A stretch of 64,000 nt of DNA from a virus. Taxonomy: Duplodnaviria; Heunggongvirae; Uroviricota; Caudoviricetes. The notes under the pieces are model-generated. The model ran no database searches, was not told the DNA's origin, and saw nothing but the letters and a program-made list of their open reading frames with translations. Below are positions 23,087 to 23,936 of this stretch, in pieces. The DNA lies in IMG/VR virus record IMGVR_UViG_2671180921_000012. The stretch is one strand, 5' to 3'. Every line of letters begins with the position of its first letter. Positions within the stretch are counted from its first letter, which is position 1. A program made the position numbers and the translations under genes.

Positions 23087-23229
23087 CAGTGTTATTTGCT
23101 AAGAGCAGCGAATAATCGTTCGAAATCGATAGTATCTATAGCACGCGTAAGCGCCGGAAGTTCAGCCTCAAAGTACCCGTGTCGATCGTAAAAGAAGGGA
23201 CCGAAGAGCGAGGCATGTTGGATTCTACT

Positions 23230-23901
23230 TCACCCCAGCCCGGACACACAGTTAAGCCCATTACCGGCTAAAAGGCTAAAAAACTTCTCTGGATTATCGT
23301 GGTAAAGCTGGGAATCAATGGTGGCGGTTAACTCTTCCATAGGGAAGCACACCCGCCCTGTATCCCAGGGATATTTAGTCCGAAGCATAAACATTGCTTT
23401 CAGCAATTCACATTGAGCGCGGATCGCGTCCGGTTCATAGCCAGATATGGAGACATAAGCCACGTCCCTCATTCCTGCGTCATCTTTGAAAGTCACGATA
23501 GAAGTAACATCCAGCTCTTTTTCGAAAGAGCAAGCAGCATCTACTGGACGCTGAAGTAAATCATTCGACTTAATGCGCTCGAGAATCCCTCCCCACATAT
23601 CATTTAGATATTCGATATGAGCCAAAACCTTATCAAGACACTCTCGTGTAAACCATTCAGTATGCCCGCCACCGACGCTTTTCTCCCACGGCGCATTCCA
23701 GGGGAAAAAGGTTGCGTGTAAAGCCCGCTCAAGATTAACCATTGCCAAACGTGTACCACGATAGACCCGTGAAAGCGCAAAATCGGGACTCACTTGTAGC
23801 CCTTTAAACCGTGCCAATGGACCACATGAAATGCCGATTTTAAAAGTATCTCCGTTCTCTGGCACCAGAACGTAGAGGTAGTGTTGTTTCTCTTCTTGCA
23901 T
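23230..23901 (-). CDS. GIY-YIG/T5orf172-like domain protein (223 aa)
   Basis: N-terminus HYLYVLVPENGDTFKIGIS fits the GIY...YIG spacing, with downstream Arg and Glu; C-terminal 140 aa unassigned; lies between incA-like iterons and parA. Confidence 0.45.
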   Translation of the reverse strand: MQEEKQHYLYVLVPENGDTFKIGISCGPLARFKGLQVSPDFALSRVYRGTRLAMVNLERALHATFFPWNAPWEKSVGGGHTEWFTRECLDKVLAHIEYLNDMWGGILERIKSNDLLQRPVDAACSFEKELDVTSIVTFKDDAGMRDVAYVSISGYEPDAIRAQCELLKAMFMLRTKYPWDTGRVCFPMEELTATIDSQLYHDNPEKFFSLLAGNGLNCVSGLG

Positions 23902-23936
23902 ATCAATACCACTGCTTGATGAGAACCGCGCAAATG

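Follow-up and report, generated by a model that had tools for sequence, protein, structure and literature searches.

A nonsense-truncated T5orf172-type nuclease gene at the edge of the p0111 replicon module of a P1-like phage-plasmid

Introduction

Why should a nuclease-like gene lie between the replication and the partition functions of a P1-like plasmid prophage? The question is raised by a stretch of 64,000 nucleotides of caudoviral DNA (IMG/VR record IMGVR_UViG_2671180921_000012), hereafter the window, by which the whole stretch is meant, in which a minus-strand open reading frame (ORF) of 223 codons separates iterons downstream of repA from the par operon. The original prediction, made from the letters of the window alone, treated this ORF as GIY-YIG/T5orf172-like cargo inserted between the incA iterons and par of P1, and suggested a role in defence, exclusion or replicon control. 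P1-like phage-plasmids, which often carry resistance and virulence genes, come in two replicon types. Here we report that the 223-codon ORF is, as judged from sequence comparison, a nonsense-truncated allele of a putative two-domain endonuclease gene belonging to the p0111 replicon module, and we weigh what such a gene might do.

Results

The ORF (23901..23230) starts with ATG and has the YLYVLVPENGDTFKIGIS motif at residues 8-25, and because this motif is present the originally described gene with a GIY-YIG-like motif is real. Its relationship to GIY-YIG/T5orf172 proteins, for which a profile search had been advised, was borne out. The Pfam family T5orf172 (PF10544, GIY-YIG clan) matches residues 8-85 over profile positions 2-87 of 101, with 27.4 bits against a gathering cut-off of 20 (E = 5e-6), and PHROG 681, labelled 'endonuclease', matches with 7e-9. 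Moreover, the AlphaFold2 model of the full-length form of the protein (predicted local distance difference test, pLDDT, 83; predicted template modelling score, pTM, 0.64) has the GIY-YIG alpha/beta fold and matches the GIY-YIG domains of SLX1. The N-terminal ~105 residues are a T5orf172 (GIY-YIG-clan) nuclease domain. Enzymes of the GIY-YIG type share a Tyr...(Tyr)...Arg...Glu layout. In an alignment of 13 family members (22-44% identity) residues Y10, K21, G23, R31, S44, E58, H62, E82, W83 and F84 are invariant, and their spacing fits this layout; the putative match of Y10, R31 and E82 to the catalytic residues was deduced from spacing. The full-length protein is predicted to be an active nuclease. 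NCBIfam has no family for it, the PHROG that covers it as a whole is of unknown function, and its RefSeq name is 'GIY-YIG nuclease family protein'. In phi456 (OR339795.1) the same gene is labelled 'terminase small subunit', an annotation that looks wrong.

What did not hold is the assumption that the 223-codon ORF is the whole gene. Alignment with RCS47 revealed that codon 224 (23230-23232) is TGA in the window and CGA in RCS47, and that the complete frame has 269 codons (23901..23092), ending with TAA at 23094-23092, 7 nt ahead of a terminator hairpin; the interval in which the locus was first noticed, 23087-23936, covers this complete frame. The window allele is thus devoid of the last 46 residues of the normal 269-amino-acid (aa) product. 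In the model of the full-length form the lost tail holds three strands and two helices, and it includes I258-D259, the sole C-terminal-domain columns past residue 223 that are invariant in all four lineages described below. Because these 46 residues, including the only invariant C-terminal motif beyond residue 223, are gone, the window allele is probably crippled or inactive.

TGA224 is a minority allele found in ~3-5% of copies: a 61-mer spanning the TGA has exact matches in 12 of 370 matching plasmids and in 20 of 386 matching Escherichia coli genomes. The identical 223-aa protein is recorded on 464 contigs. We took a census of 46 copies of the gene, drawn from IMG/VR loci, RCS47, one genome and the window itself. 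The frame is intact over 269 codons in 37 of them; five stop at codon 112, one copy each stops at codon 68, at codon 224 (the window) and at codon 228 (SJ46), and one is located at a contig end. Another independent inactivation among the 46 copies is found in L050 (IMG/VR UViG_2645727563_000002, 6294-8058), where the p0111 nuclease gene is broken after nt 294 by a 1.76-kb insertion and ~230 bp are deleted. The pairwise ratio of nonsynonymous to synonymous polymorphism (pN/pS) among p0111 copies is 0.31 for the nuclease gene, compared with 0.02 for repA, 0.002 for parA and 0.055 for parB; when the gene is divided into parts, the N-terminal domain has 0.27, the C-terminal domain as far as residue 223 has 0.30 and the tail has 0.47. 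A ratio of 0.31 combined with recurrent stops means that this is an accessory, dispensable gene under weak purifying selection. A separate rearrangement is seen in an E. coli plasmid (P0005, ABN773_26325), which encodes a 197-aa chimera made of an unrelated 78-residue N-terminus, in place of the nuclease domain, and residues 105-223 of the nuclease protein, ending at TGA224 as in the window.

The surroundings of the gene also differ from what was expected. On the minus strand the order is upfA, DnaA box and GATC sites, origin iterons, repA, downstream iterons, nuclease ORF, terminator, Ppar, parA, parB and P1 capsid gene 23 (Table 1). In a BLAST comparison with P1 (NC_005856) the window is 99.3% identical up to 23025 and 93.7% identical from 25274 on, and between these positions nothing significant is found except one 59-bp stretch of 76% identity within repA. 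Since P1 homology stops at 23025 and resumes at 25274, the origin iterons, repA, the downstream iterons and the nuclease gene have been exchanged as one 2.25-kb module, 2248 bp in the window against 1489 bp for incC-repA-incA of P1. On the right the break precedes the -35 box of Ppar by 19 bp, and on the left it falls within oriR, separating the incC iterons from the part with the GATC sites and DnaA box. RepA of the window is 42% identical to that of P1, and the iteron consensus, TCGCGTATAGTCAAC, differs from the 19-bp incA/incC iterons of P1; the iterons belong to a different Rep3-type replicon. Therefore, the gene does lie between an iteron array and the par operon, as first described, but the array is not P1 incA, and rather than cargo having entered between P1 incA and par, the whole replicon has been swapped. 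The region should be read as a p0111 replicon, not as P1 incA plus an insertion. P1 indeed has no gene at this position, only ~190 bp between incA copy 1 and Ppar. When this spacer was searched for a remnant of the nuclease gene, tblastn and blastn-short gave nothing beyond chance, nor is it similar to the flanks of the gene. A compositional sign of foreign cargo was likewise sought and none was found, the guanine-plus-cytosine content of the gene being 0.47, against 0.44-0.46 for neighbouring genes and 0.476 for the window.

Within the module, four downstream iterons (at 23936, 23966, 23998 and 24060, spanning 23936-24074) are inverted relative to the origin copies, and two (at 24154 and 24178, spanning 24154-24192) have the origin orientation and overlap the 3' end of repA. 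The iteron nearest to the nuclease gene, 23936-23950, is 34 nt from its ATG. The terminator scan predicted no terminator between repA and the nuclease gene, the promoter scan found no convincing sigma-70 promoter for the gene within the iterons, and Rfam had no match in 22800-25500. Co-transcription of the nuclease gene with repA, as originally proposed, is putative. A terminator ahead of parA had been proposed, and a hairpin followed by T6 is present there; its fold has -11.9 kcal/mol with a z-score of merely -1.7, and it marks the end of the transcription unit of the swapped module.

Table 1. Features of the replicon region of the window and the evidence for them
Feature	Position	Strand	Details and evidence
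upfA	25805..25413	-	
oriR host-factor part shared with P1	25274..25370		five GATC sites 25300-25353, DnaA box TGTGGATAA 25362-25370; left recombination boundary; P1 annotation of Dam sites and DnaA box
Origin iterons	25157..25260		five copies, 21-25 bp spacing, consensus as in the text; repeat search
repA	24194..25078	-	Rep3-type initiator, 294 aa from ATG 25078; Pfam Rep3_C and Rep3_N (WH1/WH2); annotated coding sequence in RCS47 and CP088846
Downstream (incA-like) iteron array	23936..24192		six copies; repeat search and regular-expression scan
T5orf172/GIY-YIG-type nuclease gene, truncated 223-codon allele	23230..23901	-	nuclease domain ~aa 1-105; C-terminal domain from ~aa 125
Former 3' end of nuclease gene	23092..23229	-	codons 225-269 and stop; severed by the codon 224 change; RCS47 alignment
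Intrinsic-terminator-like hairpin	23063..23084	-	GCCCC TGAAC GGGGC + T6, hairpin from 23084 to 23070; terminator scan
Ppar	22978..23006	-	-35 TGTACA, -10 TATTAT; promoter scan; position identical to P1 Ppar, mapped from P1 annotation
parA	22923..21727	-	
p0111-type replicon module replacing P1 incC-repA-incA	23026..25273	-	BLAST against P1

The swapped module is the known p0111 replicon type, being 98-100% identical to the p0111-type replicon of RCS47, SJ46, JL22 and pO111-type plasmids. At 95-100% identity the segment is present in RCS47, SJ46, JL22 and phi456 (4/12 phage records carrying the whole segment), and the module is found in 391 PLSDB plasmids (at least 95% identity and at least 80% coverage) and in 386 of 5426 complete E. 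coli genomes (~7%); a scan of GTDB genomes returned one close copy and one irrelevant match only. PLSDB has 402 records with the nuclease protein versus 404 with the module. The paper on JL22 reports that repA' (p0111) and a gene of unknown nature, gp57, replace repA (IncY), and assigns 24 of 55 P1-like elements to p0111 (PMC9603915); in another survey the share is 63 of 119 (PMC10879196). The gene and the exchange of replicons have thus been recorded before, in databases and in publications, but with no function assigned. Four points appear to be newly stated here: the slot is conserved over four replicon lineages, one of them closely related to the P1 replicon; the C-terminal domain lacks sequence relatives and has an initiator-like predicted fold; decayed alleles have been counted; and this copy is truncated. 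As an aside, plasmid pA16EC0618-5 (CP088846.1, 100% identical) is typed 'IncHI1B' by MOB-suite/PLSDB despite its p0111 P1-like replicon, and this typing looks wrong.

A synteny comparison had been suggested as a check on whether the gene is odd cargo, and it speaks against this idea. In other P1-like elements (L003, L004 and L005) the three closest non-identical relatives, at 25-44% identity, are each flanked by repA and its iterons on one side and by parA on the other. The L003 protein (P0004) is 44% identical to that of the window and is encoded beside the same iterons and a repA whose product shares 84% identity with RepA of the window. The homologue in L004 from Salmonella enterica (P0010) is found with P1-type iterons and a RepA 83% identical to that of P1, whereas the one in L005 (P0011) is next to a third RepA type and a par operon whose ParA and ParB are 57% and 44% identical to those of P1 and whose gene lengths (401 and 321 aa) are the same as in P7-par IncY plasmids. 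The gene always starts 23-34 nt past the last downstream iteron and has the orientation of repA. The nuclease gene is therefore a regular companion of this replicon family, and P1 is the exception. It is also absent from E. coli IncY elements with P1-type or P7-type par, and PLSDB and INPHARED contain no P0010-type (IncY-linked) homologues, only N-terminal 40% matches to the p0111 gene. More distant homologues of the N-terminal domain occur on other mobile elements and islands, without a constant neighbour. One of them, P0021 (L058, 3431-5813), resides in a mobile element, where its neighbours are an HTH_36 gene and a second T5orf172/MUG113 gene and a ParA-like ATPase is encoded upstream, and is another instance of T5orf172 genes adjoining maintenance genes.

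Comparison of L003 with L004 reveals a second swap of the same kind. Their ParA and gp23 proteins are 99.7% and 99.5% identical, yet RepA is 41% and the nuclease proteins are 28% identical. The exchanged block extends from the first origin iteron to beyond the nuclease gene, with the same limits as in the window versus P1, so that in both swaps examined the boundary is 63-84 bp downstream of the nuclease stop codon. Divergence of the nuclease between lineages outpaces that of its neighbours (44% identity where RepA has 84% and ParA 89%), and between the window and L003 the C-terminal domains are merely 32% identical despite the same iterons and RepA at 84%. Relatedness of the nucleases does not track that of RepA: the L005 nuclease is closest to the L004 one (38% over the full length), while for RepA the identity of L005 to the window type (48%) slightly exceeds that to L004 (43%). 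This mismatch hints that the nuclease gene and repA are sometimes reshuffled relative to each other. It should be noted that the called start of P0004 (311 aa; L003, 8001-8123) is over-extended, since codons 1-41 are a reading of the iteron array (…IAYSQH…FAYSQH…); translation probably begins at Met42, for a product of ~270 aa.

An exhaustive phmmer search (1.84 billion representatives) and a profile search (5.8 billion proteins) both place the C-terminal domain in P1-like elements only. The phmmer search yielded 76 matches in all, and P0004 was the sole full-length relative by HMMER. The original statement that this domain has no assignment stands at the level of sequence: it has no match in Pfam, NCBIfam or among Protein Data Bank (PDB) sequences, and a search of solved structures by sequence with the C-terminal-domain profile and the full profile gave no meaningful match. 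Using hhalign, the domains of the p0111/L003 pair could be linked to those of the L004/L005 pair (E = 8.8e-5, 135 columns). The nearest fold matches are replication-initiator winged-helix domains, nearest of all Rep WH1, and the best match in BFVD is a COG5527 plasmid-replication initiator, with a non-significant E-value of 0.06. The initiator-like fold is thus a lead at the level of predicted fold, not homology. The C-terminal ~145-165 residues are predicted to form a fast-evolving winged-helix domain that would bind and target DNA, resembling the domains of initiators that recognise iterons.

Elsewhere in the window, ~690 bp (14429-15121) stand in place of the rlfA-rlfB-pmgF region (~1.8 kb in P1). 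This replacement holds a hok/sok-type toxin-antitoxin (Rfam sok at 14723-14897, 112 bits, and a 51-aa Hok-like ORF at 14892-15047), and a 108-aa hydrophobic ORF is located at 14384-14710. The C4 antisense RNA with its a1/b1 targets (immI region, 11068-11274) and three tRNA genes (31815-34041) are expected for a P1-like genome.

Discussion

Our leading candidate, held with somewhat less than even confidence, is a free-standing nuclease, either homing-endonuclease-like or derived from a homing endonuclease gene (HEG), that is used in conflicts between related P1-like elements, through homing or exclusion. In phages, T5orf172 genes have been described as putative HEGs which mark the borders of exchanged segments and in which frameshifts or truncations are common (Barth, Dunham & Seed 2023, PMC10448857), and in Odn (ICP1 Gp88) a T5orf172 nuclease fused to a Rep-type DNA-binding domain cuts the origin iterons of a rival, an activity lost in the E180A mutant (Barth et al. 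2021, PMC8263062). We favour the conflict nuclease because the features of the present gene match those of the T5orf172 HEG-like phage genes and its Rep-like fold recalls Odn. Presence is patchy, the gene being absent in P1 and P7-par IncY elements and present in L004 beside a close relative of P1 RepA, and inactivation is frequent, by stops at codons 68, 112, 224 and 228 and by one insertion/deletion. The C-terminal domain would position the nuclease on a site in a co-resident or superinfecting rival element, probably in or near the rival's replicon. The resulting break might then be repaired by copying the nuclease-bearing module, amounting to module replacement, or might alternatively lead to loss of the rival, that is, to exclusion.

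Several observations weigh against this reading. Activity, target and homing event are all putative only, and the second Tyr of the GIY-YIG signature is Phe20 in 11 of the 13 family members. Nearly all of the ~400 plasmids with the p0111 module carry the gene, no allele with an empty site was found among them, and the P1 spacer has no remnant; in the absence of a p0111 empty site, present-day mobility of the nuclease gene alone is not evident. All p0111 elements have the same right-hand boundary with P1, for which one ancient ordinary recombination would account equally well. The fold-match scores of the C-terminal domain are weak, and sequence mimicry of RepA, as in Odn, was sought by hhalign against five RepA proteins, including the cognate one and that of P1, and rejected (E = 0.37). 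Finally, any accessory function under selection could also produce a pN/pS below 1 and conservation across deep divergence. The identities of the P1 flanks were also considered as a test of repeated homing but did not discriminate, the identity of the par flank being ~99% in almost every element.

Alternatively, the protein could be an anti-phage defence effector, whose GIY-YIG nuclease cuts unrelated phage DNA or acts in abortive infection, with the variable C-terminal domain detecting the invader or directing the nuclease to it. A defence role is known for GIY-YIG nucleases, for example SNIPE, in which E414A abolishes defence (PMC13190303), the variable regions of P1-like elements harbour many defence genes (bioRxiv 10.1101/2025.09.12.675607), rapid evolution and recurrent loss are typical of such genes, and one distant homologue (P0013) is near Mrr_cat, WYL and Ymh genes on a chromosome. 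However, no PADLOC-DB 2.0 model matched at E-values up to 1, the protein has neither a transmembrane segment nor DUF4041 or another sensor domain, its strict linkage to the replicon slot in four lineages would have no obvious reason, and its C-terminal fold is nearest to initiator winged-helix domains. We regard defence as unlikely. That same fold, Rep WH1 being a domain of iteron binding and dimerisation, would suit an accessory or regulator of the replicon, which might bind its own iterons or RepA and tune copy number, handcuffing or insulation of the par promoter, with or without nicking. The constant distance from the last iteron, the repA orientation with no predicted terminator between and the joint movement with repA and iterons are in line with such a role, and a relative of T5orf172 HEGs, CapR, has been domesticated as a repressor (PMC10448857). 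Nevertheless, contigs that are otherwise P1-like contain copies that stop at codon 68 or 112, or in one case a copy broken by an insertion, P1 and P7-par IncY replicons function without the gene, its pN/pS is 15-fold above that of repA and catalytic-type residues are invariant; furthermore, the divergence of C-terminal domains between the window and L003 speaks against a protein that recognises the iterons or RepA of its own element. Replication or partition itself is an unlikely function, since inactivated copies are maintained, P1 lacks the gene and the C-terminal domain changes although RepA and iterons remain constant. Such a regulator seems quite improbable, and replicon control is the least likely of the three roles suggested originally, because the gene has been repeatedly knocked out in otherwise intact-looking elements.

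The knock-outs, as well as the wide spread of the window's truncated allele and the weak constraint on the gene, could also mean that it is a neutral passenger, a decaying remnant of an old insertion with no present selected function, wedged between two essential plasmid functions. We consider this very improbable, as the full frame is retained in most of the sampled copies, frame and catalytic-type residues have survived the divergence of the four lineages and pN/pS is clearly below 1 in both domains. Should the gene be nothing but a decaying passenger, the practical value of the finding would be to flag the 223-aa ORF as a truncated allele.

The conflict nuclease can be given a more specific form, which at this point is a distinct long shot. 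The Rep-WH1-like domain would recognise a rival P1-like replicon at the homologous position, the GIY-YIG domain would cut it, and repair between the conserved part of oriR (DnaA box and GATC sites) and Ppar would copy the whole module. If true, such iteron- or origin-directed homing would be a selfish drive for replicon replacement, would explain why repA, iterons and the nuclease gene always swap together in P1-like phage-plasmids and would help to explain the IncY/p0111 dimorphism. More generally, a nuclease that drives or polices replicon exchange would provide a mechanism for incompatibility switching and for competition between phage-plasmids, and would extend the paradigm of T5orf172 HEGs and Odn from lytic phages and satellites to plasmid replicons.

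Relationship to known systems

With respect to other p0111-type replicons, the window differs by its minority premature-TGA allele. I-TevI and the Seg-type endonucleases of T4 resemble the present protein in having a ~100-residue N-terminal GIY-YIG catalytic domain, a linker and a C-terminal DNA-binding domain (predicted here), and in a total length of ~220-270 aa. The likeness extends to their being free-standing genes; the I-TevI/Seg genes cause co-conversion of flanking markers. In contrast, the present protein is of the T5orf172 subfamily with Phe for the second Tyr, has an unrelated C-terminal domain and is a nuclease by prediction.

Closer parallels are found in ICP1-type T5orf172 HEGs. 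There, as here, a T5orf172 nuclease is joined to a separate, fast-changing targeting domain, the gene is free-standing and occupies an intergenic slot beside essential genes at the edge of a segment exchanged between related elements, and its presence is variable, with frequent stop or frameshift alleles. Homing is putative in both cases. The differences are in the C-terminal domain, which here has a winged-helix-like predicted fold and there is CapR, DUF723 or a DUF4397 zinc finger, in the host, which here is a plasmid prophage with the slot inside the plasmid replicon, and in the lack of an empty-site allele within p0111. Odn differs from the p0111 protein in coming from a lytic phage and being aimed at a satellite, the target here being only putative, and in its initiator-type domain, the likeness of which to RepA has no counterpart here in sequence. 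Both proteins nevertheless combine a T5orf172 nuclease with a replication-initiator-type domain, the conserved catalytic Glu of Odn would correspond to Glu82 of the TEWF motif, and the genetic setting of both is tied to modular replicons and iterons.
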